Positions 10,222 through 57,916 of a DNA stretch of 58,228 bases are shown in pieces. Within the stretch, counting starts at the first letter, position 1; each line of letters starts with the position of its first letter. Both the position numbers and the translations under genes were made by a program. Origin of the DNA: a bacterium. Its GTDB lineage: Bacteria; UBA10199; 2-02-FULL-44-16; JAAZCA01. The stretch spans positions 1 to 58,228 of the forward strand of contig JBBAAC010000001.1 in NCBI GenBank assembly GCA_041658465.1, given 5' to 3'. Below the pieces are notes generated by a model. That model was not told the origin of the DNA. It ran no database searches and worked only from the letters and a program-made list of their open reading frames with translations.

Positions 10222-10700
10222 GGCTGGCCTGCCCGCCGGCTGGCAGGCGGGCAAACCGACACCGAGTTATTTCCAGCTCATGCGGCTAACGGTGGAATTA
10301 TAGCCTTCGCGGTCCCCATTGCTCGAAGCCTGCCTGCCGGTAGGCAGGCCGCGGGTCATCGCTTGCTCCGTGCCAGTGTCGTGTCCCATTGCATTGCCAC
10401 AAACGTGAAAACCCCGCTTACTGCATGCCAATACGCAAGTATATCATGGCGCATGATGAGCGGTGTCCCCAGCCCAGCTTCGAGCAATGGGGACCGCGGT
10501 GGCAGGTGATTCACCGTTAGCCTTATAAACTGACCTAGACTCGTTATCGGCTTGCGAGATGATGGGCTGGGGACACTGCTCCTTATGTGGCGAGGAGCAT
10601 AACCTGCCTGCGGGCTTGCGAGATGCCAGCCGCGGATCACCGCGTACTTTGGCACGTAGCCAGCCGCGGATCACCGCGTACTTTGGCACGGTGTCGGCTT
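10222..10700. repeat. Composite MITE-like structured repeat (R-element), locus 1, with a tandemly duplicated terminal segment
   Basis: The left arm (ccgacaccgagtt ... ggctaacggtgga ... gcggtccccattgctcgaagcc) is complementary to the right arm (gcttcgagcaatggggaccgc ... tcaccgttagcc ... actcgttatcggc). It has the same architecture as 47802-48215 and matches the single unit at 23048-23258. The segment agccgcggatcaccgcgtactttggcac occurs twice in tandem at 10627-10690. Confidence 0.8.
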
Positions 10701-12055: not shown

Positions 12056-12135
12056 TCTACCCCACCCTGACCCTCCCCTTACAAAGGGGAGGGAACATTC
12101 CCCTCCTTTGTAAGGAGGGGCCAGGGGAGGTAGAT
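12056..12135. repeat. REP-like double hairpin (two inverted half-elements)
   Basis: tctaccccaccctgaccctccccttacaaaggggaggg is followed by its near reverse complement cccctcctttgtaaggaggggccaggggaggtagat. Related copies lie at 18781, 54622 and 57868. Confidence 0.85.
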
Positions 12136-18780: not shown

Positions 18781-18860
18781 TCTACCCCACCCTATCCCTC
18801 CCCTTACAAAGGGGAGGGTACGTACCCCTCCTTTGTAAGGAGGGGCGGGGGGAGGTAGAT
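18781..18860. repeat. REP-like double hairpin
   Basis: tctaccccaccctatccctccccttacaaaggggaggg plus the inverted partner cccctcctttgtaaggaggggcggggggaggtagat. Confidence 0.85.
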
Positions 18861-23047: not shown

Positions 23048-23258
23048 CTGCGGAGTGGCACGCAGTAAGCGGGGTTCCGCCGTTTATCGATAGGCCGCGA
23101 ACAACGGCGCAGAATAAGCGGTGACCTGCGGCAGGCTTCGAGCAATGGGGACCGCGAAGGCTATAATTCCACCGTTAGCCGTATGAGCTGAGACCAACTC
23201 GGTGTCGGCTTGCGAGATGCCAGCCGCAGGTCGCCGCGTACTTCATGGCACGTAGCCA
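23048..23258. repeat. R-element, locus 2 (single unit, opposite orientation)
   Basis: gtggcacgcagtaagcggggttccgccgtttatcgataggcc...gcggtgacctgcggcaggcttcgagcaatggggaccgc...caccgttagcc...aactcggtgtcggcttgcgagatgccagccgcaggtcgccgcgtacttcatggcac is the reverse complement of the left unit at 47802-47995. Confidence 0.8.
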
Positions 23259-34851: not shown

Positions 34852-34889
34852 AGGCCAACTGCCGATGCACATGCAGGCCATCTCTCCTC

Positions 34890-34918
34890 TGGACAAAACC
34901 CGCTTAATAACTTATAAT
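34890..34918 (+). promoter_or_regulatory. Sigma-70-like promoter (TGGACA-17 nt-TATAAT) immediately upstream of the parE-like toxin
   Basis: The -35 is at 34890-34895 and the -10 at 34913-34918. The ATG at 34927 lies only 8 nt after the -10, implying a leaderless or near-leaderless mRNA. Confidence 0.35.
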
Positions 34919-34926
34919 GTCCATAA

Positions 34927-35190
34927 ATGTGGACAGTTAAAATATCTTCCCAGGCGGGTCGTTTCTATGCCTCCCTTCAGGGGAGGGAACAAGCGAGGGT
35001 CGCTGCGGCCCTTGACCAGCTCGCCCAGGATCCCCGAACGGGCAAATCCCTCAGGGGTGAACTGAAGGGTTACTGGTCGTACAGGGTCGGCGTCTATCGC
35101 ATTCTGTACTCGATCGAAGAACATGAAGTCGTCGTTCACATCCTTCGCATTCAGCATCGCAAGGAGGTCTACGAACGCTTCAGGAGGTGA
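34927..35190 (+). CDS. RelE/ParE-family type II toxin
   Basis: LRGELKGYWSYRVGVYRILYSIEEHEVVVHILRIQHRKEVY matches the PF05016 pattern (KL.G....yRiRvGdyRiiY.i......i..i.hRkd.Y). Confidence 0.8.
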   Translation: MWTVKISSQAGRFYASLQGREQARVAAALDQLAQDPRTGKSLRGELKGYWSYRVGVYRILYSIEEHEVVVHILRIQHRKEVYERFRR

Positions 35191-35192
35191 CT

Positions 35193-35465
35193 ATGGCTCA
35201 GCTCATTTCGGTCTCGAAGGCAAAACAGCGGCTGCTGGAACTCGCCAGGCGCTCTCACGATCAGGGCGAATCCTTCATCCTGCTCAGGGACGGAGAGCCC
35301 GTGAGCGCCATGATTCCGTTTGATGAATACGAGTCCCTGCTGGAGACGCTGGACATCCTGGAAGACGAACCCGACATCCTCTCCAAACTCAAACGCGCCG
35401 AGAAAGAAATGCGGAAAGGAAAATTCGCCGTCTGGAAGGGAAGAAAACCAGCGCCCACCCGTTGA
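35193..35465 (+). CDS. Phd/YefM-family antitoxin (encoded downstream of its toxin)
   Basis: AGGAGG lies 5 nt upstream. The sequence reads ISVSKAKQRLLELARRSHDQGESFILLRDGEPVSAMIPFDEYESLLETLDILED. The toxin stop abuts the ribosome-binding site. Confidence 0.8.
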   Translation: MAQLISVSKAKQRLLELARRSHDQGESFILLRDGEPVSAMIPFDEYESLLETLDILEDEPDILSKLKRAEKEMRKGKFAVWKGRKPAPTR

Positions 35466-35501
35466 CCCGACTTTCTCCGGATGAACCATTTGTTGCATAA
35501 T

Positions 35502-35591
35502 TACGGCTTCATCACCGAGGCAAAATACCGCGAGATCGTGCCAATGCATCCCGACATGGCCGCGTTCTGCCAGACCGTGAATTGTCCATAA
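35502..35591 (+). pseudogene. Orphan 3' terminal fragment (29 codons plus stop) of a third EF-hand/HExxH family gene
   Basis: tacggcttcatcaccgaggcaaaataccgcgagatcgtgccaatgcatcccgacatggccgcgttctgccagaccgtgaattgtccataa encodes YGFITEAKYREIVPMHPDMAAFCQTVNCP*. It has 8 mismatches in 90 nt to the 3' end of the 37503..39467 gene. No upstream gene body is present. Confidence 0.85.
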
Positions 35592-35674
35592 TTCGCATTT
35601 TCCTTTGACGCTGAGAGAGAGAATGGTTATAATTCTGACCATAAGGGGTCGGCCTTAGGCACGGGAGGTTCTGC

Positions 35675-35941
35675 ATGAAATCTATCAAGGCGACGGATGC
35701 GAAGAAACATCTGCTGGAAATCCTCCGGGATGCAGACGAGTCCTTTGAGCGCTACTGCATCACTCGAAACGGCGAGCCGAAGGCGATCCTCATGTCCGTG
35801 GACGATTATGAGGGATGGCTCGAAACCCTGGCAATCTTAAGCGACAAGAAGGCGGTGGCGGAAATTCGAAAGGCCCGCAGGGAGCTGAATGCCGGCAAAG
35901 CGATCCCTTTCGAAAAAATCCTGGAGAAGCTCTGTGCCTGA
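35675..35941 (+). CDS. Phd/YefM-family antitoxin
   Basis: IKATDAKKHLLEILRDADESFERYCITRNGEPKAILMSVDDYEGWLETLAILSD. It overlaps the downstream toxin by 8 nt. Confidence 0.85.
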   Translation: MKSIKATDAKKHLLEILRDADESFERYCITRNGEPKAILMSVDDYEGWLETLAILSDKKAVAEIRKARRELNAGKAIPFEKILEKLCA

Positions 35942-36194
35942 ATATCGCATTGTCTTTGCGCCAACAGCTGAGAAGCAATTGTTTGCGCTGACCAGGACCA
36001 TCCGCCTGCGCGTGGCTCATGCCATCGCAAAACTCGCCGATGATCCATTCTTGGGGAAACAGCTCAAAGGCGACCTCAAAGACTACCGATCCTGGCGAGT
36101 TGGAGATTATCGGGTCGTCTACTTTATCCGGAAGCATATCATTCAGATCGAGATCGTACGCATCGCGCATCGTCGCGAAGTCTATCGGCACTGA
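35934..36194 (+). CDS. RelE/ParE-family type II toxin (GTG start)
   Basis: VPEYRIVFAPTAEKQL...LKGDLKDYRSWRVGDYRVVYFIRKHIIQIEIVRIAHRREVY. The GTG at 35934 overlaps the antitoxin stop (gtgcctga). Confidence 0.8.
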   Translation: MPEYRIVFAPTAEKQLFALTRTIRLRVAHAIAKLADDPFLGKQLKGDLKDYRSWRVGDYRVVYFIRKHIIQIEIVRIAHRREVYRH

Positions 36195-36255
36195 CTTCGC
36201 CGATCCTGCCTTGACGCCGTGCCGATGCATGAAGAAGTCGCCGTCTTAGTAATGT

Positions 36256-37308
36256 TCACGCGATGCGGTAGAGACTCCCCTTCCTTGAACCTTCCATCGC
36301 TATGAGTCCACCCTGCTTCATGCGCGCGAGAATCGCCTTCAGCGTCACGCGTTTGATGCCTGAGTTGCGCTCCAGGAATCCGATGCTCGCGGGCTGATGC
36401 AGGCGGATGAGACCCAGCACTTTTTCTTCAAGGACCGTGAGAGTCCCAGACTTCTTCGGCATCCATTGCTTTTGCAGATAGTTTGCCTGCTGCTCAAGGG
36501 CGTTCAGGAAAAAGAGGAACCACGGGTTGATGTCTGCAGTCGCCTTGAGCGTTGCCTGCGTTTGCCGCAGAGCGATGTAATAGCCCTCCTTGTTATCCTC
36601 CACAACCTTCTCATGCGATGAATACATGCAGAATTCGTATCCCAGCTTTATAAGACACAGATTCGTGAGCAGCCGTGCCATGCGGCCGTTGCCGTCGCGA
36701 AACGGGTGGATCGCGAGGAATTTGACGATGAATGCCGCGATGACCTCCAGCTCTGAATAGTTCAAGTCACCGATGAACGCGTTGTAATCGTCCACGAGTT
36801 CGCGCATCTCGACGTCGGTCTGAACGCCCGGCGGCGTGGTCTCAAAGATTATCTCCCGCTCGCCCGTCGCGTGATCGATGCGTACGACGGAATTCGGGAC
36901 ATTCTTGTACGCGCCCCTCTGGTTCGCGGGGAGCACATCATTTGAAAGATATGAGCACATCATCTGGTGCAGCGATCGGACCGAGTGCTCGCTAATTTCG
37001 ATTTCGCGATAGTGGTCGAAGATATGGTGCAGGCAATCGATATAGCCCGCGACCTCCGCCTCGTCTCGGTCGTGGATCTTTTGAATCTTGAGCCCCTCAA
37101 GGCGTGCGACGATCTCATCATCGGAGAGCTTCGCCCCCTCTATACGCGTCGAGGCGCCTGCGGAGGTGATGATCGTGGTTTTCTTGAGTCCGGCGTAGAG
37201 ATCTCGGCTCGCCTCTTTTGAAATCTCCCACAGTTCTCTGAATGCACTTATGGCCTGAATTTTTTTCAGGACCTGCGGATTGAGCGGTGATTTGAGGAAG
37301 TTTCTCAT
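36256..37308 (-). CDS. Fic-family protein (AMPylase-type) with an intramolecular inhibitory motif and a C-terminal winged-helix domain
   Basis: The Fic motif is HPFRDGNGRMARLL. The N-terminal inhibitory motif is STRIEGA, of the form (S/T)xxxE(G/N). The C-terminal wHTH-like tail is IGFLERNSGIKRVTLKAILARMKQGGLI. The start was chosen at MRNFLKS; the tracked start at 37344 would run through direct-repeat DNA. Confidence 0.8.
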   Translation of the reverse strand: MRNFLKSPLNPQVLKKIQAISAFRELWEISKEASRDLYAGLKKTTIITSAGASTRIEGAKLSDDEIVARLEGLKIQKIHDRDEAEVAGYIDCLHHIFDHYREIEISEHSVRSLHQMMCSYLSNDVLPANQRGAYKNVPNSVVRIDHATGEREIIFETTPPGVQTDVEMRELVDDYNAFIGDLNYSELEVIAAFIVKFLAIHPFRDGNGRMARLLTNLCLIKLGYEFCMYSSHEKVVEDNKEGYYIALRQTQATLKATADINPWFLFFLNALEQQANYLQKQWMPKKSGTLTVLEEKVLGLIRLHQPASIGFLERNSGIKRVTLKAILARMKQGGLIAMEGSRKGSLYRIA

Positions 37309-37416
37309 ACCATTAAATATGCCATATAATATGCCATAAATCAATTAAATCCATAAAATACCCCATATTTTATACCAAATACCTGCCTGAGAAACGACTG
37401 ACAGCCATATATACAG

Positions 37417-37502
37417 CGCAACATTTCCCTTCGTCAGCCGATAATAATGATGTGGGGGGTCTGCCCGTCAGGGCAAGTGACAGTAAAACCAACGAGTTAA
37501 TC
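37417..37502 (+). promoter_or_regulatory. Conserved 5' leader/promoter block of the EF-hand/HExxH gene family (copy 2)
   Basis: See 33080-33165; this is the same block with one extra g. Confidence 0.45.
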
Positions 37503-39467
37503 GTGCCTGGCACCAAATCCATATCCGAGGTCCGGGATCTCTACGACCTCATCGACCTCTATGCGAACCTGGATCGCAGTGGGGATGGGCTCATCGGTGC
37601 CGGAGAGATGCCCGCCGAAGAGATCAGCAAGACCGACGTCGGCAGTACGCCGTATGAAAAAAACCGGCCCGATGGATTTCTCGCACCGTGGGAGATCATG
37701 CAGCGTCAGGCGCGTTTCTTTGGCTCCACCGAGGTCGCGCAAATGCGCACCCAAAACCAGGCGTCACTCGGCAGCGCCTTTTCGGACATCATGAGCCTTC
37801 CAAAGGATGTCGCCTTTGGGCCGCTCAGGTTTAAGGTCCATACGGCCTTGCGTTTCTGGCAGAATGGACGCATCCAGGAAGCCACGCTCGCTGAGCCCAC
37901 CGACATCTCCGTGCTCGCGCGACAATGCCACATGCACACGCCTCCAGATGATGGCGACCTGAAATCGCTCCCGGCAGGCACAAGGATATGGCTTGATCCG
38001 GACGGGACGCTCAAGGAGATCGAGCTGGGCGGCCCCGCGCACATCAGGGGAATAGACTTCACTGCCGGCATTCGGATCAGGTTCAAAGGGAATAAGAAGA
38101 TCGGGGAAGCAGATGCAACACACGAACCGATTGTCATAAACAACATTGCCTACACTCGAGTCGTTTTCCTTGAAAACGGCGATCAAGTCCGGACCCTGAA
38201 GGACGATACCTCAGTGCCGTTTTTGCGTCTCGTGTATAGTTACAATTATTTCGGGTCTGTCGCTGACTCCAAGACGAGCGTAAGCCTTCCCTGTAAAGCA
38301 AAGACTGACGTCCGGTTCAATCCTGATAGGTTTGCTATTCAGGGTGTGCTTGCCCAGGGCCAACGCATGTTTGAATATGAAGGCAAGTCCGGCGGTCTGG
38401 AAGTCGCACTTCCCCCAGGCACCAAAATACATGTCGGCGACGGAAGCGTGACTCAATTCCGCGCAGAACTCGGCGATGACTTCAGATTTCAAGGTGTGCA
38501 TGCGGGGCAAGGCGATATTTTTGAGGAAATCAGTGAAAGAGATCTGGAAGGCATGATCGATGCAAAATGGTATTTTACGAATGAATATGTCGTCCGACTC
38601 AGATCGAATCATGGCAGCATCCGCATCGGCGGTGTGCACGCCACGGAGGCAACAATCGATGCGGCCGGCGTTGTATGGGCAACGCTCGCGGGGGATTTCC
38701 AAAGCCCCTATGGCAGCGGGAGGGTCTATCGAGCCGGTGAAAATGTATTTCTTTCAGCAGATGGAAGATTTCTGGAACCGACGATGAAGTGTTTTGAGAC
38801 ACTGTATCCGGGAATCAAACTTTTCGGCGTCAACAATGCCAACGAACTCTTGCATATCCTGACGGGCATGGCGGCCCTGCCCCCTGCTATACGGAGAAGC
38901 CTCCGAAAGGTCAGCTTCGTGGATGATTTTGATTACTCCCGTCATCCTGATATTCCATGGTTCGCTAGCATTAAGGGAGAAGCTGATCCTGTCGACATTG
39001 GTAGTTTTCGACTAAGTCGGTACTCTTCGTTGCAAGGAAGCATGCATCCAGATCAGAGAGGCGAATTGCGTTTCCTCCACGAGGCAGCGCACGTGCACAC
39101 GCTTCGAGTTGGCGAAGAGTTTAAACGAAAATGGCTGAAGGTTGAATATTCCCTTTTACCAAAATGGATTCAGGAACGGTTGAAGGCCGAAGGTCTCGAG
39201 ATAAATAATACCATAGAAGCTTGCATCACTGAATATGGATGCAGGAATTTTTATGAAGATGTCGCGACGATGACTGAAGCAGCGACCTTTAAGCCGACCT
39301 TGTTTCGACGGTGGATTGATCCCGGAGTTCACAGGCACGCCCCCGCCTTCCGCGCCAAGCTCGATCTCCTGCGCGAGTACGGCTTCATCACCGAGGCGAA
39401 GTACCGCGAGATCGTGCCGGTGCATCCCGGAATGGCCGCGTTCTGCCAGGCCGTGAATTGTCCGTAA
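37503..39467 (+). CDS. EF-hand plus MORN-variant-like repeat plus HExxH (HEAAH) protein, paralog 2 (a 17-codon upstream extension to 37452 is possible)
   Basis: The GTG start is homologous to paralog 1. The EF-hand loop is DRSGDGLIGAGE. Repeats are FWQNGRIQEATL, WLDPDGTLKEIEL and LSADGRFLEPTM. The HExxH context is FLHEAAHVHTL, with a downstream EDVAT. The C-terminal end is YGFITEAKYREIVPVHPGMAAFCQAVNCP. Confidence 0.7.
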   Translation: MPGTKSISEVRDLYDLIDLYANLDRSGDGLIGAGEMPAEEISKTDVGSTPYEKNRPDGFLAPWEIMQRQARFFGSTEVAQMRTQNQASLGSAFSDIMSLPKDVAFGPLRFKVHTALRFWQNGRIQEATLAEPTDISVLARQCHMHTPPDDGDLKSLPAGTRIWLDPDGTLKEIELGGPAHIRGIDFTAGIRIRFKGNKKIGEADATHEPIVINNIAYTRVVFLENGDQVRTLKDDTSVPFLRLVYSYNYFGSVADSKTSVSLPCKAKTDVRFNPDRFAIQGVLAQGQRMFEYEGKSGGLEVALPPGTKIHVGDGSVTQFRAELGDDFRFQGVHAGQGDIFEEISERDLEGMIDAKWYFTNEYVVRLRSNHGSIRIGGVHATEATIDAAGVVWATLAGDFQSPYGSGRVYRAGENVFLSADGRFLEPTMKCFETLYPGIKLFGVNNANELLHILTGMAALPPAIRRSLRKVSFVDDFDYSRHPDIPWFASIKGEADPVDIGSFRLSRYSSLQGSMHPDQRGELRFLHEAAHVHTLRVGEEFKRKWLKVEYSLLPKWIQERLKAEGLEINNTIEACITEYGCRNFYEDVATMTEAATFKPTLFRRWIDPGVHRHAPAFRAKLDLLREYGFITEAKYREIVPVHPGMAAFCQAVNCP

Positions 39468-45396: not shown

Positions 45397-45493
45397 ATGA
45401 ACCTCCACAAAATCCTAATACTTCCGACATGATCTTCGTTTCGATGCAGGAAGCAGGAAACACGAAGCAGGAAAAATCACAACTCAGTTTAAT

Positions 45494-45556
45494 CATGCTT
45501 CATGCTTCATGCTTCATGCTTCATGCTTCATGCTTCATGCTTCATGTCTCATGCCT
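45494..45556. repeat. Tandem heptanucleotide repeat (catgctt, seven perfect units plus two degenerate units)
   Basis: Direct reading. It begins 7 nt beyond the mlaF stop codon and lies about 97 nt upstream of the mlaD ATG. Confidence 0.95.
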
Positions 45557-45562
45557 CGCGCC

Positions 45563-46321
45563 TTATCCATCTCCCGTCTCCATCTCGCCCTTGATGAAAT
45601 TCTGCACGAGCGGATCGTCCGAGGAGAGGGCTTCATCCTTTGTCCCAACGAAACCGAACCGTCGATCGTGGATCATCGCAAGACGGTCCGTCACCGAAAA
45701 AGCTGCTTGCATGTCATGGGTCACGACCACCGAAGTAACGCCCAGCTTATCCTGCAACGACTTGATGAGGAGGCATATTCGCTTTGTGTTCGCCGGATCC
45801 AGACCGGTAGTCGGCTCATCGTAAAGTATGACATCCGGATTTGTGGCGATAGCTCGCGCGAGACCTACCCTCTTTTTCATTCCTCCGGAGAGATCGGCCG
45901 GCATCATTCCCTCGACCCCGGGCATACCGACGAGCCTCAGCTTCTCGGCCACTATCTGGGATATCTCGGGCTCAGAGTAATTGAAGTGCTCCCTGAGCGG
46001 ATAGGCGACGTTTTCCCGCACGGTGAGGGAGTCGAAGAGCGCGGCGCCCTGAAAGAGCATCCCCAACCGGCTGCGCATCTTCGAGAGTTCGCGCTCGCTC
46101 ATTTCGCTGAGCGCCTGCCCCTTAAACAGTACATGCCCAGTGTCAGGATGCAGCACGCCGAGCAGAAGCTTGAGAAGCACGGTCTTGCCCTTGCCCGACC
46201 CGCCTATGATCGTGATCGTCTCGCCCTTCAGGATCGACAGGTCGGCGCCGTCCAACACCTTGTTGTCGCCGAATGCCTTTGAAACCTTTTTGAACTCTAT
46301 TATCGGGATCATTTCACTCAT
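45563..46321 (-). CDS. mlaF: Mla-type ABC transporter ATP-binding protein
   Basis: Walker A is GGSGKGKTV, the signature is LSGGMKKRV and Walker B is VILYDEPT. Confidence 0.85.
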   Translation of the reverse strand: MSEMIPIIEFKKVSKAFGDNKVLDGADLSILKGETITIIGGSGKGKTVLLKLLLGVLHPDTGHVLFKGQALSEMSERELSKMRSRLGMLFQGAALFDSLTVRENVAYPLREHFNYSEPEISQIVAEKLRLVGMPGVEGMMPADLSGGMKKRVGLARAIATNPDVILYDEPTTGLDPANTKRICLLIKSLQDKLGVTSVVVTHDMQAAFSVTDRLAMIHDRRFGFVGTKDEALSSDDPLVQNFIKGEMETGDG

Positions 46322-47801: not shown

Positions 47802-48215
47802 GTGCCTAAGTACGCGGTGACCCACGGCTGGCATCTCGCAAGCCGACACCGAGTTGAGCTCAGATCGTATGGCTAACGGTGGATTTTCAGCCACCGCGGT
47901 CCCCATTGCTCGAAGCCTGCCGCAGGTCACCGCTCGCTCCGTGCCACTGATCGTGGCCCATCGATAAACGGGGGAAACCCGCTTGCTATGTGCCACTACG
48001 CGAGTTGAATCAAGGCGCAGGACGAGCGGGGTCCCCAGCCCAGCTTCGAGCAATGGGGACCGCAAAGCTAGTGATTCACCGTTAGCCTTATAAGTTGAGC
48101 TAAACTCGGTATCGGCTTGCGAGATGATGGGCTGGGGACCCCGCTTGAGCAGTGGCGATGGACAAGGTGCGTGAGGACGGAGCCAGCCGTGGGTCACCGC
48201 TTGCTTTGCCTGCAT
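47802..48215. repeat. R-element, locus 3: best-preserved composite copy, with perfect 19-nt terminal inverted repeats
   Basis: gcggtgacccacggctggc (47813-47831) is the exact reverse complement of gccagccgtgggtcaccgc (48183-48201). The internal arms pair as ccgacaccgagtt/aactcggtatcgg, ggctaacggtgga/tcaccgttagcc and gcggtccccattgctcgaagc/gcttcgagcaatggggaccgc. Confidence 0.85.
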
Positions 48216-48938: not shown

Positions 48939-50297
48939 CTACCGGGCGCGTTTGTTGATCCCGTATTTCTTGGCCTTGTACTGCAGCGTGGTTCGCTTCA
49001 TTCCCAGTTTGGCCGCGGCCTTGGTGAGATTCCATCCCTCATCCTTGAGCGCTTCGAGAAGGATCTCTTTCTCTATGGCGGTGATCTTTCCCGCCACTCC
49101 AGGCTTCTCGCGCGCCAGGCCCCTGACTCCTTTATCAGTGCCGACGATTTTGGGCGGGAGATGGGCGGGAGTAATCGTGCCCTCGACGGCAGCGAGGACC
49201 GCATGGGCCATGGCATTTTCAAGTTCATGAGCATTGCCGGGCCATCCATATGTCTTGAGAAATCCGACCGCCTCAGGAGAAAGGCTCGCCTGTTTGTGCA
49301 GCTCGTCGTTGTACCTGCGGAGGAAATGCGCAGCCAGCTCCGGGATGTCGTCCGCGCGTTCCCTAAGCGGCGGCAGGGCGATGGTGCTTACGCCGAGGCG
49401 GCCCTGAAGCCCGATGCGGAAACTCCCGCCATGAACCGCCTCGCTAAGATCCGTAGCCGTGGAAGCGATTATCCGCACATTCGCCTTTAGGGGCTCCGTG
49501 CCACGCACCCGCTGAAAGATCGACTCCGCCAGAAAGGCCTCGAGCTTCGACTGAGTCCCGGCGCCCAGCGCATTGATCTCCTCAAAAAAGAGAGTCCCTC
49601 CTTCTGCGAGTTCGATCTTCCCCAGGCGCAGCTCCTCGCTCGACTCAGCCGATTCCTTTTCCGATCCGAAGATCTCCAGGTCGAGAACAAACGGGTCGAG
49701 CGCCATGCAATTGATAACGACGAACGGCTTGTCAGCACGGCCGCTCCTGTTATGTATCTCCCTCGCAACCAGCGATTTACCCGTGCCGCTGCTGCCGACT
49801 ATGAGCACGGGCTTCGAGAGCTGTGCTGCGGCCTCTATGTCGCGGAGCACGACCTTCATCGCAGGGCTCTCATAGATGAGAGAACCGCTCTTCTTTGCAG
49901 CGGACTCCTTTGTCATCCGGCGTTCTTCCAACAAATTACGCCTCTCCAGCGCCCTCTTGATCTTGAGATCGATCTCTTCGGACGAGAACGGCTTCAGAAC
50001 GTAATCGAACGCGCCCTGTCTCATCGCCTCCACCGCATTCTCTATCGTCCCGAATGCAGTGATTACGATTACCATCGTTGACGGCGATATCTCCCTGACC
50101 TTGCGGAGGACCTCCATACCGTCCATCTCCGGCATCCGAAGATCGGTTAGGAGCACATCGAAGGATTCGCGTCTGACCTTGTCGATCGCCAGGTGACCGT
50201 CGGCCGCGATATCCACGCCGTAGCCCTTGCTCGTAAGGAAATGCCGTATGATCTCGCACATCTCCTTGTTGTCGTCCGCTACGAGTATTTTGCTCAT
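48939..50297 (-). CDS. NtrC-family response regulator (REC, AAA+ and Fis-type HTH domains) lacking the GAFTGA loop
   Basis: The REC domain is KILVADDNKEM...DVLLTDLRMPEMDG. Walker A is GSSGTGKS. The C-terminal HTH is NLTKAAAKLGMKRTTLQYKAKKYGI. At the GAFTGA position the sequence is FGSEKESAESS. Confidence 0.8.
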   Translation of the reverse strand: MSKILVADDNKEMCEIIRHFLTSKGYGVDIAADGHLAIDKVRRESFDVLLTDLRMPEMDGMEVLRKVREISPSTMVIVITAFGTIENAVEAMRQGAFDYVLKPFSSEEIDLKIKRALERRNLLEERRMTKESAAKKSGSLIYESPAMKVVLRDIEAAAQLSKPVLIVGSSGTGKSLVAREIHNRSGRADKPFVVINCMALDPFVLDLEIFGSEKESAESSEELRLGKIELAEGGTLFFEEINALGAGTQSKLEAFLAESIFQRVRGTEPLKANVRIIASTATDLSEAVHGGSFRIGLQGRLGVSTIALPPLRERADDIPELAAHFLRRYNDELHKQASLSPEAVGFLKTYGWPGNAHELENAMAHAVLAAVEGTITPAHLPPKIVGTDKGVRGLAREKPGVAGKITAIEKEILLEALKDEGWNLTKAAAKLGMKRTTLQYKAKKYGINKRAR

Positions 50298-50344
50298 AAT
50301 TATTACATCATGTAGCATAGCCCATAATTAATGTAAATTTCAGA

Positions 50345-50437
50345 ATACGCGATTGCGTCGCAGGGCACGCGCCAGAGGGGCTGGCGCAGGCGCTTCTGAT
50401 CGAAGATGTGGCCGAAAAATCCGATGGAGCGGCCGAC
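50345..50437 (-). pseudogene. Displaced remnant of the aclA 3' end (about 31 codons)
   Basis: The minus-strand translation [31 protein letters not shown] compares with the intact aclA end [31 protein letters not shown]. In DNA I counted 10 mismatches in the 74-nt core against 52737-52829. Confidence 0.85.
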
Positions 50438-50461
50438 CCAGCGCGCCCGATGAGTAATTTT

Positions 50462-50884
50462 TCAAACGGGATAGTGCTTACGAATGTATTTCACGAACTC
50501 TTCAAAATCACCAAGGCGTTCCGCGATGACCGTGTAGAGCTGTTCCAGATCGATATCCCAGTAGATGTGGACGAGGCGATTGCGAAACCTTGCCATCTTC
50601 TTCATCTCCTCCGCAAAGTCAGACGGCAGTATTCCGCCCTTCTCCAGGAGTGAAAACGTATCCTGGTAACTCCGGGGAATACCCAGCCGCTCCTGCGCCA
50701 CGATATGATTTCCGACAGAGAGACACGCCTCGATGGCAAGCTGCAGCGCATGCATCACCGCATATTGCCTTTCCTTGTTCTTCTGAAATTGCGCGGATGT
50801 GATATCCGAAAGATCTTTGAGGTCTTTCGTCAACGAGAGAATCTCCTGCGTCCTCTTCTGCAAGGTTGCGATGTCCACAGCCAT
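50462..50884 (-). CDS. hepT: HepT-like HEPN-domain (DUF86) toxin
   Basis: The Rx4H motif context is RNRLVHIYWDID. The length is 140 aa. Its start overlaps the upstream MntA stop (ATGA). Confidence 0.8.
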   Translation of the reverse strand: MAVDIATLQKRTQEILSLTKDLKDLSDITSAQFQKNKERQYAVMHALQLAIEACLSVGNHIVAQERLGIPRSYQDTFSLLEKGGILPSDFAEEMKKMARFRNRLVHIYWDIDLEQLYTVIAERLGDFEEFVKYIRKHYPV

Positions 50885-51510
50885 CAGGAAGCCTCCTTGA
50901 GGTCTTTGTAGGCGTCCGCATAAAAATGATCGAGGACCGGGGAATAATCCAGGTATCTAGTGATGACGCCCTCTTCAAAGGCTGCAAGCGACTCATGCGA
51001 CCTTACGTAGATCGCCGAACCATCGCGAATGACCCTGTACTGAATTGCAACAGGCGCTGAGTTCAAGCAGACAAGATCGATGCGCGTTGCGTTGGGAACA
51101 ATCTCAAGCACGCATGCCTCCAACTTCGCCTCAAGATCGAATGGAGAAGATGATCGATCGTCCAGGTAGGCGACATCGATGTCGCTCAAAGGCGTGGTCG
51201 CTCCCGTGGCCTGAGAGCCAAAGAGATAGAGGAGCTGGATTTCCGTGAGAGAGGCAAAACGATGCGCATTCGCGTGCATGAGCTGCGTTAACGGGACTTT
51301 TTCTTTACCAGCTTCTTTCGACATGCCGCCGGTTTTCATCTGCGATTTTATCCACTCGCCCAGCACATCCTCTGCGAACAGCCAGGCCTTGCCGATCTTG
51401 ACCGCGGGGATCAGGCCCTTCGCGGCCTTGCGATAGATGGTCATCGGGTGCACGCCCAGCCACTTCGCAACCTCCTGAACGGTCAACAGTCTTGGCAATG
51501 TCTTGGACAT
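50884..51510 (-). CDS. mntA: MntA-like minimal nucleotidyltransferase antitoxin fused to an N-terminal excisionase/MerR-type HTH
   Basis: The HTH is LLTVQEVAKWLGVHPMTIYRKAAKGLIPAVKIGKAWLF. The NTase motif is LFGSQATGATTPLSDIDVAYL (GS...DxD). Confidence 0.75.
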   Translation of the reverse strand: MSKTLPRLLTVQEVAKWLGVHPMTIYRKAAKGLIPAVKIGKAWLFAEDVLGEWIKSQMKTGGMSKEAGKEKVPLTQLMHANAHRFASLTEIQLLYLFGSQATGATTPLSDIDVAYLDDRSSSPFDLEAKLEACVLEIVPNATRIDLVCLNSAPVAIQYRVIRDGSAIYVRSHESLAAFEEGVITRYLDYSPVLDHFYADAYKDLKEAS

Positions 51511-51531
51511 AGTTCTATTGTATTAAACTTC

Positions 51532-51562
51532 ATTTAACATTGCAATCATTCAATTTAACATT
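51532..51562. promoter_or_regulatory. Two 10-nt direct repeats (atttaacatt) spaced 21 nt start-to-start upstream of mntA, a putative operator
   Basis: atttaacatt occurs at 51532-51541 and 51553-51562, in an AT-rich 97-nt gap directly upstream of the HTH-MntA start. Confidence 0.4.
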
Positions 51563-51607
51563 TCGCCCCAATACTGACCGCAAATGCTTGTTTCCGCTTC
51601 CTGAACC

Positions 51608-52585
51608 CTACGAATCGTCCCCTTCTTTCAAATATCGCGAAAACAGGTTCTTCGTCAGATGCGTGACGAATGGACTCACGTCCTTCCACTCAAGACGCGC
51701 GTCTGCGAGGGCGTTTGCCCCCTCGCGTTTGATGTCCTGACCCATGCGCTTCATCACTTCACCCAGGGAGGAGACGTCGATCGGGATCTGCTCCTCGCGT
51801 AGCTGATCGAGCACGTGATCGAGGCGCACGGGCGTCACAAATTCCTCCGCAAACTCCTTGGCCCCGGGGATGATGGGTCTTTCCTTCGCGAGCGTCCTCG
51901 GGTGCTTTGTGGCAGACGCGCGCTCGGCCCACTTCCCCACCTTGTACTTCGCCATGACGGGGTTTCCTTTGGCGTCCCACTGCATCTCGATGGGCCTCAC
52001 GACGATGCCCTCGATCGTGTTTTCGGGATCATCGATCCCGTTCTCGCAACCCACGCGCGACATCGTGTCGATGAGGTTATTGAATATCTGCGCATCCGGC
52101 CTCCCGCGAAAGAGCACGGGCGTGGTCTTGAGCCCCACCTTCGCCGCCCACGCGGGGATCTCGTCCTGAGGGAGGTATTTGCCGTTGAGCCTGATGTCGA
52201 AGACGCGAAAGTCGTTGCCCTTTATGTAGCGTATGCCCTTCTGGATCTGCGGCCATTCCTTTGACGGCGTGCCGCTGCCGTGCCACTCGCCGTAGAGGAT
52301 CACATCGTGGCCGGCAAATGTTGTTTCGATCCTCTTTTCGAGCCCCGTGTCCAGCACCCACGAGACGAATCCCTGCCCCTCTTTGCTCTCGGGCCGGATA
52401 TCGTTAAAATCGAGCTTGCGACCACCGAACCTGAGCCGGCCATCGATAAGGCCGATGCGCATCGCGCTCCCGTGCACCTTCTCTGTCACGATGACCTCCG
52501 GCAGCTCAAATATTGCCGGCACCTCGTCGATGTTCTCTATGTGCGGATATTTTGTGAATTTGTCTGGTGCCATAAATGTGATCAA
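51608..52585 (-). CDS. Rnl2-family (PF09414-like) ATP-dependent RNA ligase
   Basis: The nucleotidyltransferase motifs are in order: I, TEKVHGS (lysine nucleophile, compare T4 Rnl2 EKIHG); III, ILYGEW; IV, EGIVVRP; V, AKYKVGK. Confidence 0.75.
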   Translation of the reverse strand: MITFMAPDKFTKYPHIENIDEVPAIFELPEVIVTEKVHGSAMRIGLIDGRLRFGGRKLDFNDIRPESKEGQGFVSWVLDTGLEKRIETTFAGHDVILYGEWHGSGTPSKEWPQIQKGIRYIKGNDFRVFDIRLNGKYLPQDEIPAWAAKVGLKTTPVLFRGRPDAQIFNNLIDTMSRVGCENGIDDPENTIEGIVVRPIEMQWDAKGNPVMAKYKVGKWAERASATKHPRTLAKERPIIPGAKEFAEEFVTPVRLDHVLDQLREEQIPIDVSSLGEVMKRMGQDIKREGANALADARLEWKDVSPFVTHLTKNLFSRYLKEGDDS

Positions 52586-52718
52586 TCCAGTGTCAAGCGC
52601 TGTTCGATTTCAGAGCAAACCTCATTCTTGTGCCCGATTGCAAGGATTTGCACTTCCCCTGCCTGGTACTGCGATTCATTCTGACATTTCTGTTTTTGCT
52701 GACCGCTGATGGCTGGTT

Positions 52719-54599
52719 TTATTTCACCTCCGTCATATACGCGATATCATCATACGGCACGCGCCAGAGCGGTTGAGCCAGGCGCTTCTGGTCGAAGATG
52801 TGGCCGAAGAGGCCGATGGATCGGCCGACAACGAAGAGCGCGTTGAGGCAGCCGAGGTCGATGATCTCATCGACCTGTTCCTTGGTGAATAGATCCGGCA
52901 GGGACCAGAGCAGGTCCACGAACGTGATGCCGATGCAGCCGTCCACGTTAAGGATGAGCGTGCCCTTTTTCTGCGTGGTTATCGCCTCCACCTCGAGCGC
53001 GTATTTCAAGAGATCCGTCTTTGGGAAGGTCTTGAACACATATTCCTTGAGCTGGGTCACGCGCATGTCCGGGTTCGTCACGCTCTTCACGAGGTGCCCG
53101 ATGCCCGGGATATTCTCGCCCTTCTTCTTCATATCGCCTATGAACTCATCGGGCGTAAGGCCGGACGCATACGCGCGCTTGAAGTTCTGCGCAGCGCCGT
53201 CGATGGCGCCGCCGAAGCGCGGGCCGATCGTGAGCAGCCCGGATACGAGAGAAGAGATGATGTCCTTGCCCGCGCGCGCGGTGACGATGGCGTTGTGCGC
53301 GCCGGACACGGCCGGGCCGTGATCGGACGTGAGCATGAGCACTGTTTCGAGATACTTCGCGGCGAACTTCGGAAGCCGGCGCTTGAACCACAAAAGCCCG
53401 ATCACGCCGCCGATGCCGATCTCGTCACCGATCACCTGTGAGATCGGCATGTCGCTGTAGGTCAACTCCTCGCCCCTGTCGTTTGAGATCGTGCAGACGA
53501 AGGACGCTGGTTTGCGGATCACGCCTTCCTTGAGGGCCTGAGCGTAATCCATCGGGAACTTCGGAGCGGGGACCTCCGCAGCTGGTTTTATCGTGCCTTC
53601 CTTCACCAGCATGTCGAACGTGGCGCGTATCGCGTCGCCATAGTCGTCGAATGAAGTCGGCACCACTGCGCCGGCCTCCTTGAGCGCCGCGTTCTTCGCG
53701 TCTGCGGTCTCGAGGGCCGTGTCCGCCTTTGCGCCGGCGTGGCCGAACTGCACGCCCGCTGGGAACATCTTGGAGCAGGTGCCCGTGACCCAGATGACGA
53801 GCGGCTTTTTTATCTTTCCCGCCTTGAGCGCGTCCACGATCTTGAGTTCCTCGGTGCCGCCGATCTCTCCGAGGGCCGCGATCATCTTCACCTCCGGGAT
53901 CTGCTCGTAGCGCAGGATGTGATCCAGGAGCGTGGAGCCGGGATAGGCGTCTCCGCCGATGGCGATGCCCTCGTAGAGGCCGTCGGAGTTGCGCGCGATG
54001 ATGTTGTAGCACTCGTTGGAGAGCCCGCCCGACTTGGAGACGAAGCCCACGCTGCCTGGCCTGTGCAGCTTGCTCTCGACGATGTTATCTATGGTGCCCG
54101 CCGTGTTGCCGATCTTGAAGCAACCTGCCTTGATGCCGCCCACTGTGGCGGGCCCGATGATCCACTTGCCCTTCTCCCTGGCTGTGGCCGCCAGGATGCG
54201 GCTCTTGCGCTCCGGCACGCCCTCCGCGATCACGGCGATCGTCTTGATGTTCTGGTTCTCAAGCGCCTCCATGGTCGTGGGAAATGCGGAGCGCTGCGAG
54301 GAGAAGTTCACAACAACATCCGCAGTAGCGTGCTTATCGGTCGCCTCCTTGAGCGTGCGGTACATGGGCAGCAAGATTTCCTTCGCACCAAAGAACGCCT
54401 TGTGCCAGCCTGCGCGGGACGGATTCACGATAGCAGCAACAGAGGGTTTAGCGCGGCCGCAGGCAAAGTCAAAGTCCAGCATGCGCTGGATTGCGTTCTG
54501 CTGGTAGCCATAAACGATGGACTCAGTGTTTTTTGTAAAGAGCTCCGCGAAATTCATTGTGCCTCCATATTTTTTGCTCGCTGCTTTCTTTGCCGTCAT
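52719..54599 (-). CDS. aclA: ATP-citrate lyase alpha subunit (CoA-ligase alpha-like plus citrate-synthase-like domains)
   Basis: SIVYGYQQNAIQRMLDFDFACGR and the phosphohistidine loop GHAGA (VQFGHAGAKA) are present. The C-terminal citrate-synthase-like part is TSDHGPAVSGAHN. The gene is paired with aclB. Confidence 0.9.
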   Translation of the reverse strand: MTAKKAASKKYGGTMNFAELFTKNTESIVYGYQQNAIQRMLDFDFACGRAKPSVAAIVNPSRAGWHKAFFGAKEILLPMYRTLKEATDKHATADVVVNFSSQRSAFPTTMEALENQNIKTIAVIAEGVPERKSRILAATAREKGKWIIGPATVGGIKAGCFKIGNTAGTIDNIVESKLHRPGSVGFVSKSGGLSNECYNIIARNSDGLYEGIAIGGDAYPGSTLLDHILRYEQIPEVKMIAALGEIGGTEELKIVDALKAGKIKKPLVIWVTGTCSKMFPAGVQFGHAGAKADTALETADAKNAALKEAGAVVPTSFDDYGDAIRATFDMLVKEGTIKPAAEVPAPKFPMDYAQALKEGVIRKPASFVCTISNDRGEELTYSDMPISQVIGDEIGIGGVIGLLWFKRRLPKFAAKYLETVLMLTSDHGPAVSGAHNAIVTARAGKDIISSLVSGLLTIGPRFGGAIDGAAQNFKRAYASGLTPDEFIGDMKKKGENIPGIGHLVKSVTNPDMRVTQLKEYVFKTFPKTDLLKYALEVEAITTQKKGTLILNVDGCIGITFVDLLWSLPDLFTKEQVDEIIDLGCLNALFVVGRSIGLFGHIFDQKRLAQPLWRVPYDDIAYMTEVK

Positions 54600-54621
54600 T
54601 TCATCCTCACTGTATCCACCA

Positions 54622-54702
54622 TTCCCCTCCTTTGTAAGGAGGGGTAAGGGGAGGTAGATCCTTGTTCTACCCCCTCCAACTCCCCCTTACAAAGGGGGAG
54701 GG
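54622..54702. repeat. REP-like double hairpin (half-elements in swapped order) between aclB and aclA
   Basis: ttcccctcctttgtaaggaggggtaaggggaggtaga ... tctaccccctccaactcccccttacaaagggggaggg. Confidence 0.85.
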
Positions 54703-55980: not shown

Positions 55981-56011
55981 GAAAACCTCCGGATCTGGCC
56001 GCCACCTGCGT

Positions 56012-56404
56012 CTTCAGGCGCCGCTCGTTGAGCGTGTAACCCTTGAGAATGTGGTCCTTCAAGACGCCGGTCGCCCAGATTCTGAATTCGGTTCCTCGGC
56101 GAGAATTGACGCGATATCCAACGGAGATGACGGCATCCAGACCGTAATAAAATACGGGTTTGTCCGAACCGGCAATGTGCATTTTTTGCACATTGCTTTC
56201 TCTCTTCAACTCTCCTGTCTGGAAGATGTTCTTCAGATGTTTTGTGATCACGGATCGCTCGGTGGCAAACAAGGCAGCCATTTCCTTTTGCGCCAGCCAG
56301 AGCGTATCCTTCTCCAAACGCACGTCCACGGCTGTCCGGCCATCCCGGGTACGGTAGAGGACAATCTGCCCCCCGGTCCCTTTGATTTCCGTCTTCTTTT
56401 TCAT
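56012..56404 (-). pseudogene. Truncated RhuM-family gene (N-terminal about 131 codons only)
   Basis: QIVLYRTRDGRTAVDVRLEKDTLWLAQKEMAALF...LDAVISVGYRVNSRRGTEFRIWATGVLKDHILKGYTLNERRLK matches the conserved RhuM N-terminal half. After that the frame runs into the aclB start region with unrelated Arg-rich sequence. Confidence 0.65.
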
Positions 56405-56733
56405 TGCAGTAACCCAGGATCGTGGCGGAACTACCAAGACGGCTCTTAATAGCACGCAGGGGAAAAATCAAGGAGAGAAAGGCGCAATCCCCACCCATCC
56501 CGCTCGTCCCGGCGGCTTCAAACATGGCCGGGATTACGAGGGCTGGGTGGGGCCCTGCGTTCTTCGGTTCGCCGCCGCCTTGCGCGGCAAACCAGGGCGA
56601 TCGATCTGGACTCCCTTCAAGCGCGCTCCCGCTTGGTTGCCGACGCTTCAGTGGCGACGATTCCGTGAAATCCGGGACTCCGACTTGAAGCCTTTGACTC
56701 CGCATCAGGGAGTGCTGGGGGCCCTTCGACTCG

Positions 56734-57597
56734 CTAGCGCTCGCTCAGGACAGGCGACGAAACGCGGAAACCGATACCGTCGTAACGGTGGCGCGTGTGG
56801 CCGAGGTAACGATAGGCCCCGTACAAAAGCACAGGAATATCATCGCACCAGGAAACGCCGCGGAGGACTCCATACGGATGAGTCCCGGAGGTATAAGGAC
56901 CTCCTGGCAAACACAAATCTTTCACCCATTCCAACACCCCGTAGGTCATGCCGTAGGTCCCATACGGTCCCTTCGGGCCCCAATTCACAGGCATGGGCGC
57001 TGTTCCATATTGATCGATCAGACAACCCGATAGTATTCTGCGCCACCCGAAGAACGGCAATCCCTGTTTGACCAGATGACGAAAGGATTCGTCTCTGGGA
57101 TCTGTAAAGATCTGCCCATTGACACCGAAGACGAAGCTTTCATACGAGCCCGCCATTTCCGCGAAATCAGCCGGAGCGACTCCTTCCGCCTCCATCGCCT
57201 CGCGCATGTTGACCGCAGGCCCGCGCCTTGCGTTCTCCCACTCCGCCTCGGTTGCCAGGCCCAGACTGCCGCCTCTCTTCTTCAAATACTCCTGCGCATC
57301 GTTCCACGAAACCAACGTCACGGGGTGGTCTGCGGGGGCGTCCGTGTTTCCGGCTCGGCCCATGACCTCGCGATACTCTGATTCGCTCACTGCCGTCTTG
57401 CCGATTGTGTAGGGAGAGAGTTGAACCCATCGTGCTGGATTGTTTTCAAACTCGCCCGAGCCGATTACCGTAGGACCGCCCGGGATACCCACCATCTCGT
57501 GGCCGTCGATCTCGGTTATCGGATACGACTCAAGCGCAGAGCTGGTGATCCCAACACATGAAAGCGCTCCAAAAGACGCCGTAGCTGCGTATGTCAT
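56734..57597 (-). CDS. FGE-sulfatase/SUMF1-family domain protein
   Basis: FEMxxTEVT-type context: VQLSPYTIGKTAVSESEY. The C-terminal motif is GVLRGVSWCDD...RYLGHTRHRYDGIGFRV (RGGSW...R...GFR pattern). Confidence 0.65.
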   Translation of the reverse strand: MTYAATASFGALSCVGITSSALESYPITEIDGHEMVGIPGGPTVIGSGEFENNPARWVQLSPYTIGKTAVSESEYREVMGRAGNTDAPADHPVTLVSWNDAQEYLKKRGGSLGLATEAEWENARRGPAVNMREAMEAEGVAPADFAEMAGSYESFVFGVNGQIFTDPRDESFRHLVKQGLPFFGWRRILSGCLIDQYGTAPMPVNWGPKGPYGTYGMTYGVLEWVKDLCLPGGPYTSGTHPYGVLRGVSWCDDIPVLLYGAYRYLGHTRHRYDGIGFRVSSPVLSER

Positions 57598-57867
57598 ACG
57601 ATTGACTCCTCCGTGATGGAACTGCGTTCTCCTCCCTTATCGCGTTATTGACAGAAAAGTTGCGGGGTTTTTTCACACATGAAGATTGCGCTTGAGATCG
57701 GACCAATAGCGCCTTGGATTAGCACTGTCCGTAAGGACTTCGATCACATCAATTATAGAATGGAAAACCACCATTCATCCTGCTCGAGGGTCCTCCTGAT
57801 CTCCTTACCTTTGAAGATCGCAATTTTCGTATCCATACGACTCCGTGTGAGACTATCGGTAGACTGA

Positions 57868-57906
57868 TCTACCCCCTCCTAACCTCCCCCTTACAAAGGG
57901 GGAGGG
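57868..57906. repeat. REP-like single half-element just downstream of icd
   Basis: tctaccccctcctaacctcccccttacaaagggggaggg. Confidence 0.8.
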
Positions 57907-57916
57907 ATTGTTTATA

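Follow-up and report, generated by a model that had tools for sequence, protein, structure and literature searches.

An RNA ligase and toxin-antitoxin block inserted at the 3′ end of aclA (ATP-citrate lyase) in an uncultivated bacterium

In E. coli, e14 (and phage 21) sits in icd and leaves the pseudogene icdC behind (PMC13626634, citing Hill et al. 1989). Many integrative and mobilizable elements (IMEs) and integrative and conjugative elements (ICEs) use the 3′ ends of housekeeping genes and accrete there in tandem (PMC5704250), and tycheposon islands contain older elements that were pushed in, together with partial-tRNA remnants (bioRxiv 10.1101/2020.12.28.424599). Here we compare with these systems a locus in a window of 58,228 nt, i.e. 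positions 1-58,228 of contig JBBAAC010000001.1 (GCA_041658465.1), in which a block encoding an RNA ligase, an MntA antitoxin and a HepT toxin lies between two copies of the 3′ end of aclA, the gene for the alpha subunit of ATP-citrate lyase. The block is an insertion that displaced the native gene end, and the readings of how it arrived are weighed below.

The duplicated aclA end and the block between its copies

All features of the island lie on the minus strand and their order is given as read on that strand: the upstream copy of the gene end (F, attL-like, 52737-52829) lies within aclA, and the downstream copy (R, the attR-like remnant, 50345-50437) lies close to a regulator gene. A repeat search of the window returned the two as 93-nt direct repeats with 83% identity, the sole repeat family of this kind. 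They agree at 77 of 93 nt (16 mismatches, longest identical run 17 nt, blastn E-value 8e-20) and the encoded peptides at 27 of 31 residues, i.e. 4 of 31 differ. A first-pass annotation of this DNA had stated that the last ~31 codons of aclA occur twice in direct orientation, which the search bears out; its count of 10 mismatches in a 74-nt core is right for the first 74 nt, but its divergence of 14% becomes 17% over the 93 nt. Its description of the copies as the last 93 nt of aclA also has to be corrected: behind F, which spans codons V590-Y620 in frame and keeps all of the conserved residues, the gene runs on through another five codons (MTEVK) to its stop (52719-52736), all of which R lacks. 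The gene itself (52719-54599) is intact, reading through as an uninterrupted open reading frame (ORF) of 626 aa with the Pfam domains CoA_binding, Ligase_CoA and Citrate_synt, and its last 36 residues, including the MTEVK tail, match those of close relatives.

The spacer between the repeats measures 2,299 nt. Alignments of aclA with its relatives end at 52716-52734, mostly at 52720-52729, and the 145 nt from the aclA stop to the ligase ATG (52574-52718) have no homology to the DNA downstream of the relatives' aclA and form part of the insert. The ligase gene (51608-52573, 321 aa from the ATG, Pfam E = 6e-25) is followed by mntA, encoding an adenylyltransferase antitoxin with an N-terminal HTH_17 domain (50884-51510, Pfam Polbeta and HTH_17, NCBIfam), with a sigma-70-like promoter match, by consensus only, just upstream of it (TTGCAA-17-TACAAT, 51517-51545), and then by hepT, encoding the RNase toxin of this type VII toxin-antitoxin pair (50462-50884, Pfam HepT-like E = 1e-35, NCBIfam). 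R, recognized by the repeat search and by comparison with functional ends, comprises 31 codons without a start and sits 24 nt past the hepT stop and 47 nt ahead of the start of a sigma-54 NtrC-family response regulator. The 24 nt (50438-50461) form the element side of the attR-like junction, with aclA homology beginning at 50438/50437, and the 47 nt (50298-50344) are a short AT-rich leader, assigned to the native downstream side by its position before the regulator (48939-50297), itself assigned as the native neighbor by Pfam and synteny. R also shares the reading frame of hepT (TGA, 8 codons, the 31 remnant codons, 13 more, TAA; 50345-50464), which is probably chance, at 1 in 3.

The same arrangement, with the copies unchanged, is present at 99.96-100% identity on contigs of four other assemblies from different samples (ENA ERZ27249422, JGI 3300028032, Logan SRR8449812 and Logan SRR8449827), and among the matches listed every contig with an identical NtrC or HepT carried the island too. 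Because these four assemblies agree, a collapsed repeat or a chimeric assembly is excluded; such an artefact, named at first pass as something that would undo the duplication, was not borne out.

Relatives were gathered by a scan with AclA, which at one genome per species gave 60 loci, with ~108 loci over all scans (designated below by L and a number); L067 was reached via regulator homologues and L073 via a metagenome scan with the AclA C terminus. The AclA of the window is 90% identical in aa sequence to those of L001 and L073, and 84% identical to that of L067. In L073 the aclA stop is followed by a hairpin terminator and, 210 nt further on, by an NtrC homologue. L067 has the order acn-icd-aclB-aclA-hairpin terminator-NtrC-yggS (convergent)-mlaEFD-prkA, i.e. 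the order of the window without the island, and L066 keeps NtrC-yggS-mla-prkA with aclBA not there. The empty site anticipated by the first-pass annotation, i.e. aclA directly before the regulator, is thus seen in both L073 and L067. Because aclA, terminator and NtrC adjoin directly in these two relatives, their gene order shows the regulator to be the ancestral neighbor of aclA, the ligase and toxin-antitoxin block to be an insertion, and R to be the displaced native end.

No terminator-like site was found on the minus strand behind the functional aclA stop of the window, whereas L073 and L067 have a hairpin and T-run there; the insertion took away the aclA terminator and may thereby link transcription of the cargo and the NtrC regulator to that of aclBA. 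The interval from aclA to the convergent yggS has different content in each of the nearest relatives: a nitroreductase gene in L001, an aspartyl-protease pair, a nucleotidyltransferase (NTase)/HepT-like pair and a CxxCxxCC protein in L002, and other genes in L006, L046 and L035.

The two gene ends, the cargo and recurrence in relatives

At two residues that are invariant across all of the functional AclA ends compared, R has C in place of Y and A in place of D; these unique changes and the empty sites together uphold the earlier view of the copy beside the regulator as a displaced remnant. It differs from any functional end at 2-4 second codon positions, compared with 0-1 for functional ends among themselves, and its homology stops at ...IAY, the final five codons being absent together with stop and terminator. 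Judged by its codons, R is shown to be a decaying pseudogene end.

The 16 differences between F and R fall on codon positions 1, 2 and 3 in the split 2:3:11, i.e. 11 of the 16 are third-position differences; the corresponding splits for pairs of functional orthologues are 1:0:10 (F and L001) and 1:1:12 (F and L073). From the preponderance of third-position differences it appears that most of the divergence built up when each copy still belonged to a functional aclA gene; R would then have gained no more than about three damaging changes since the event. The split strongly suggests a different but closely related lineage as the source of one of the ends, and the topology implies that the incoming DNA ran from somewhere inside F to somewhere inside R. 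The first-pass annotation had offered a choice between something other than a recent simple target duplication and a surrogate end from another lineage; the copies are indeed no recent simple target duplication, and the 2:3:11 split favors the second option.

Among the cargo genes, the ligase has the PF09414 domain but scores 43.5 bits against TIGR02307, the Rnl2 equivalog, for which the cut-off is 197. Because this cut-off is missed we use the name RNA ligase family (PF09414) and give up the earlier label 'Rnl2-like', although the rest of that description, i.e. the 2,299-nt spacer with ligase, HTH-MntA and HepT, holds. The ligase had no match in a PDB sequence search or in PADLOC; exact-protein look-ups with AclA and with the TTG-start form of the ligase gave no match either, probably owing to other start codons in the gene calls, and Rfam and tRNA scans of the window gave none. 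Both partners of the toxin-antitoxin pair pass the NCBIfam equivalog cut-offs (MntA, NF047752, 78.3 bits against 60; HepT, NF047751, 129.5 bits against 60), and the hepT start shares base 50884 with the mntA stop. The HTH of MntA belongs to the excisionase family (TIGR01764, 47.6 bits against a cut-off of 28.8), and its fusion to MntA is rare, with 4 proteins at E<=1e-20 among 5.8 billion. It had been named at first pass as the only DNA-binding candidate of the island; it is indeed an excisionase-family domain by sequence, but nothing links it to recombination, and on the ordinary reading it would serve antitoxin autoregulation. The GC content at third codon positions (GC3) is 0.65-0.66 in the toxin-antitoxin genes (mntA 0.66) and 0.72-0.82 in their neighbors.

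Insertion at this site recurs in relatives. The closest ligase homologue with context is that of L068 (GCA_043822785.1), in which aclA is followed by a GH32/S6PP cassette, a 95-nt aclA-end copy (c2), an NTase/HEPN cassette, a truncated 56-nt copy (c3) and the ligase. Copy c2 is 100% identical to the functional end and c3 91%, with c3 lying 145 nt upstream of the ligase; the 145-nt ligase spacers of the window and L068 are not alignable. L068, but not the window, thus has a tandem array, i.e. two cassettes along which the identity of the aclA-end copies falls from 100% to 91%, and the layout is, on our analysis of the copies, one of serial insertion into the functional site with the older units pushed outward. 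Because c2 keeps the consensus MTEVK tail and the functional gene ends in MTEKT, with no change in length up to the stop, it is the native end that was displaced in L068, and the insert supplied the substitute tail. Similarity to the aclA consensus extends leftward beyond the two displaced L068 copies, at 15 of 21 positions (P=1e-4), as would be expected of core-type half-sites.

Ligase homologues are 60-85% identical to that of the window. The L068 homologue (84%) likewise stands behind an aclA-end copy, but this toxin-antitoxin pair does not accompany it. In other genomes the ligase is a solitary, ordinary chromosomal gene, found in at least five different contexts without aclA fragments. 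Looking for the same cargo near aclA fragments elsewhere, as proposed at first pass, thus turned up the ligase in L068, in other company. At 4-fold sites the ligases of the window and L068 are 62% identical, as against 39% for aclA (Fisher P=0.001), and in L068 the GC3 of the ligase is 0.65 compared with 0.53 for the host aclA. Because the ligase exceeds aclA in both respects, these values indicate that it moved laterally between lineages, landing behind aclA in both, and it may be a separate unit that is older or was independently transferred. The NTase/HEPN pairs of L068 and L003 are only 30-36% alike.

Traces of rearrangement at the aclA end also occur in other relatives. In L060 there is a remnant of the aclA end that includes stop and terminator, and L053, from the same bin, carries the full gene. 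In L103, from a distant lineage, a 377-nt aclA-end duplication (80% identity, at 1462-1836 and 4591-4957) flanks genes for an Asp/Glu racemase and an amidohydrolase, with a left boundary unlike that of the other cases. In L057 (7848-8234) the first 59 codons of aclB are joined to the last 82 of aclA, i.e. an internal operon deletion. Degenerate aclA remnants downstream of aclA were not found in 14 other relatives, and a 29-nt aclA match inside the L053 Fic gene is regarded as chance. L002 has a 245-nt direct duplication of another kind (134-378 and 2305-2548, 87%), comprising the 5′ end of a Ldh_2-type dehydrogenase gene, the upstream copy being fused in frame to an unrelated 688-aa ORF; it too flanks an inserted gene, but concerns a 5′ end.

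How the block may have been inserted

The reading that we prefer, with moderate confidence, is a decayed integrase-less island at an attachment site in the aclA 3′ end, of the type of e14/icd or of a cis-mobilizable element (CIME). From an ancestral locus with the order icd-aclB-aclA-terminator-ntrC-yggS, a DNA element with its own ~100-nt copy of the aclA 3′ end would have recombined with the chromosomal aclA near codons 590-593, giving the order aclA body, element-supplied end and stop, cargo, original end and ntrC, with AclA left intact. The displaced end would then have lost selection, gained damaging substitutions and lost its tail, stop and terminator (~150 nt). Different aclA alleles, about as diverged as those of separate species, would have contributed the two ends, i.e. 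the cassette would come from another lineage. The recombination itself would have been site-specific, by a recombinase encoded elsewhere or since lost, leaving a CIME-like integrase-less remnant, and the same aclA site would have been reused in related bacteria, with cassettes stacking in tandem. Because the repeats share at most 17 identical bases and there is no recombinase in cis, the island would be effectively locked in and is probably immobile now. Toxin-antitoxin pairs penalize loss of the DNA that carries them, and we infer that this pair would stabilize the island in the same way. Of the first-pass proposal of an element that integrates into the aclA 3′ end and brings a surrogate end, the insertion is thus confirmed by the empty sites, and the integrase-type mechanism is what we infer.

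The position of the junctions favors a defined site, although the exact crossover is not readable from diverged repeats. Relative to the anchor TTCGGCCAC, the left ends of the remnants are at -22 in the window, -14 and -14 in L068 (c2 and c3) and ~-12 in L060, i.e. four remnants from three genomes start within 10 nt. The simulated chance of clustering within <=10 nt in the last 300-600 nt of the gene is 5e-6 to 1.5e-4 for four remnants, and 1e-3 to 3e-3 for three. Because of this clustering, a defined recombination point in aclA, e.g. an att site, is favored over scattered illegitimate joints.

Several results weigh against the preferred reading. The first concern the recombinase. The island contains no integrase, resolvase or transposase, its cargo being RNA ligase, MntA and HepT, as the first-pass annotation had already noted, and a crude screen for a tyrosine-recombinase (HxLRH-type) motif found none among the window's 41 longest non-overlapping ORFs. 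There was no integrase, resolvase or transposase in the L068 and L103 cassettes either, no complete recombinase in the 8 kb behind aclA in L053, where there is only an IS481-type N-terminal fragment, no integrase element beside an aclA-end mimic among the ~108 loci, and no such mimic in viral contigs in two scans. The L053 fragment (8712-9185, 270 nt behind aclA) is insertion-sequence (IS) debris, and so, presumably, is the start of an ORF with which L068 ends after the ligase (7077-7124, MLLTMKENNRLKVMQ...), as it may resemble IS-type transposases.

Other difficulties concern the copies themselves. The element-side flanks of the four remnants have no clear homology and are not alignable with one another. 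To explain the perfect 95-nt block that L068 has amid diverged homology, gene conversion or homologous recombination must be invoked as well, and L103 shows by its left boundary that not every case fits one att site, i.e. that other routes exist. Because R stops short of a stop codon and terminator, at least one further deletion, of ~150 nt, must be assumed. The match of the R 3′ flank to the region upstream of NtrC in L073 is only marginal: a GAAA-TTTACAyTAAT motif common to the two is suggestive only, and the alignment score was reached by 28 of 500 shuffles (236 of 500 for L067). Finally, when the 93-nt copies were placed phylogenetically, as proposed at first pass, it was not possible to tell which copy is foreign, because the distances are star-like (F-R 16, F-L001 11, R-L001 12 and R-L002 15 differences) and F shows no 3′-end drop in identity against L001, L073 or L002.

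Most of the same facts would also be explained by a RecA-mediated Campbell insertion of a circle, which is the main rival and which we consider possible though doubtful. In this case a circle with a ~100-125-nt aclA 3′ fragment and the cargo would have entered by a single RecA-dependent crossover with no recombinase; the circle could derive from an integrated-plasmid precursor or from loop-out between a donor's flanking repeats. The homologous segment would be duplicated automatically, and, just as doubtfully, the central block would stay similar to the host through cycles of loop-out and re-entry, during which the outer arms would diverge. Such an insertion fits the lack of a recombinase in any of the five cassettes seen, the 95-nt block of L068, whose 100% identity with abrupt divergence on both sides is the footprint of homologous exchange, and the toxin-antitoxin modules, whose genes typically serve plasmid maintenance; another locus of the window, described below, with a 650-nt ParE/Phd cassette and a 90-nt gene-end copy, hints at a general process that is not specific to aclA. 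However, the alleles from which the window copies come differ by 17% and have no identical run longer than 17 bases, a poor RecA substrate, and no plasmid replication gene remains. The coincident left boundaries would in addition need one ancestral arm for all of the cassettes, and because the remnant flanks are not alignable with one another, such a single inherited homology arm is argued against.

A broader reading, rather unlikely in our view, is that the aclA 3′ end, and perhaps that of other genes, is a landing pad for cassettes without an integrase in cis, each with a ~100-nt gene-end mimic. With the same reserve, the cassettes would be units of 0.65-3.5 kb, often toxin-antitoxin modules, that enter at a fixed point near codon 590 and build up in tandem, and the system might be integron-like, with a gene-end copy in place of attC, lineages exchanging cassettes by a dedicated trans-acting recombinase or by homologous loop-out and re-entry.

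One-sided homology-facilitated illegitimate recombination seems improbable. Linear DNA of a relative with the order aclA-ligase-toxin-antitoxin would have been anchored in aclA, and its far end would, no more probably, have been joined inside the recipient aclA at codon 590, so that the recipient's last codons became the remnant. This would account for a xenologous functional end, for the missing recombinase and for repeat lengths of 93, 95, 177 and 377 nt, and L068 shows that aclA with the ligase further downstream exists in another lineage. Illegitimate joints should scatter, however, and the four remnants start within 10 nt; the stacking in L068 with identical boundaries would require the same accident twice, and the element side of the L068 junction resembles aclA at 15 of 21 positions, which is beyond microhomology.

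Duplication in situ of the genome's own aclA end (in tandem or as a long target-site duplication) followed by neutral decay, with no foreign end, is very hard to credit. L068 does show that soon after an event the 95-nt copies can be perfectly identical, and F and R of the window fall within one AclA sub-clade (LWRVPYDD motif). Nevertheless, ~13 first- and second-position changes would be expected alongside 11 third-position ones and only 5 were seen, i.e. the 2:3:11 split is not even (binomial test, P ~0.05 under this model and 0.004 under equal rates), and R is no closer to F than to L001 or L002.

That no biological rearrangement occurred at all, the repeats being either an assembly artefact or the variable and template repeats (VR/TR) of a diversity-generating retroelement, can be dismissed almost entirely: ~83% direct repeats at a gene 3′ end are superficially like a VR/TR pair, but the mismatches are not A-specific (2 of 16 on A in the downstream copy, 4 of 16 in the upstream copy) and there is no reverse transcriptase in or beside the island.

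The second locus of the window (33166-39467) has a like anatomy: a 561-aa gene (33166-34851) is followed by genes for ParE (34927-35190) and a Phd antitoxin (35187-35465) and then by a 90-nt copy (35502-35594) of the gene's last 29 codons and stop. The copy shares 89% identity with the end of the 561-aa gene and 91% with that of a paralogue (37452-39467), and next come a Phd/RelE pair and a Fic gene; the locus may have arisen by cassette insertion of the same kind, or a paralogue may have been deleted there and left this remnant. The icd-aclB side of the operon is also disturbed (55981-57916): ~1.9 kb lie between the two genes, with an FGE-sulfatase-domain gene (56734-57597), a truncated RhuM-family fragment (~55997-56170) and a stretch in common with L001 (56464-56533). 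In L067 icd abuts aclB, and in L002 homology to icd stops ~55 nt before the aclB start.

Further repeats are of other kinds. A palindrome of ~80 nt resembling repetitive extragenic palindromic (REP) sequences (core CCCCTTACAAAGGGG...CCCCTCCTTTGTAAGGAGGGG) occurs at 12056-12135, 18781-18860, 54580-54698 and 57866-57901, one copy lying in the aclB-aclA spacer (conserved in L002) and one just past icd. A repeat family of ~100-400 nt with 75-93% identity and internal inverted repeats is found at 10251-10683, 23101-23251 and 47838-48206, with no Rfam match; the last copy lies beside the studied locus, between a 189-aa ORF and yggS. A tandem array of ~8-10 CATGCTT heptamers (45479-45571) stands directly upstream of the mlaF-like gene, at its start.

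Relation to known systems

The principle of insertion into a gene 3′ end with supply of a substitute end has been known since e14/icd. The likeness of the present locus to e14/icd (PMC13626634) lies in the use of the 3′ end of a central-metabolism gene, in a substitute end that keeps the enzyme intact, in a C-terminal fragment that forms a pseudogene at the far end, and in direct repeats that are diverged copies of the gene end. The first-pass annotation had called the targeting of a central carbon-fixation gene unusual; in kind it is not, since e14 uses icd (PMC13626634) and many IMEs and ICEs use housekeeping 3′ ends (PMC5704250). However, e14 is a 15-kb prophage that has its own integrase and excises on SOS induction, whereas the island of the window measures 2.3 kb, has no recombinase and a truncated and decayed remnant, and lies in aclA.

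A CIME is similar in being integrase-less, in keeping attL- and attR-like repeats and in having the target-gene end in one repeat; in CIMEs, ICEs and IMEs, as in the stacked L068 cassettes, successive insertions push older units outward, and toxin-antitoxin genes are common cargo (PMC5704250). The repeats here are longer, at 93-125 nt compared with typically 8-60 bp, and no cognate integrase-bearing ICE or IME specific for aclA was found among the ~108 loci; the lineage is uncultivated, and conjugation and mobilization genes are not in view. Tycheposon and ssrA-type arrays (Prochlorococcus, Dehalococcoides) resemble the locus in that one attachment site is reused and that partial target copies and degenerate elements are found in the island (bioRxiv 10.1101/2020.12.28.424599; PMC3146451). 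Their targets are tRNA or tmRNA genes and many of their units have tyrosine recombinases, whereas aclA codes for a protein and the units seen behind it are all without such an enzyme. With described type VII HepT/MntA systems the cargo shares adjacent genes, a shared base and scores above the equivalog cut-offs, and it differs in the N-terminal excisionase-family HTH of MntA.

If a single recombinase, or homology-driven loop-out and re-entry, were at work, this would explain the spread of small defense or addiction modules in genomes with few mobile elements that can be recognized, and aclA-end remnants would be a simple marker for finding such islands in metagenomes. Compared with the known systems, what is new is the target, aclA, which encodes the key enzyme of the reverse tricarboxylic acid cycle, together with the repeated use of this site in several uncultivated lineages by units that, as far as seen, all lack a recombinase and are stacked in tandem in one relative.

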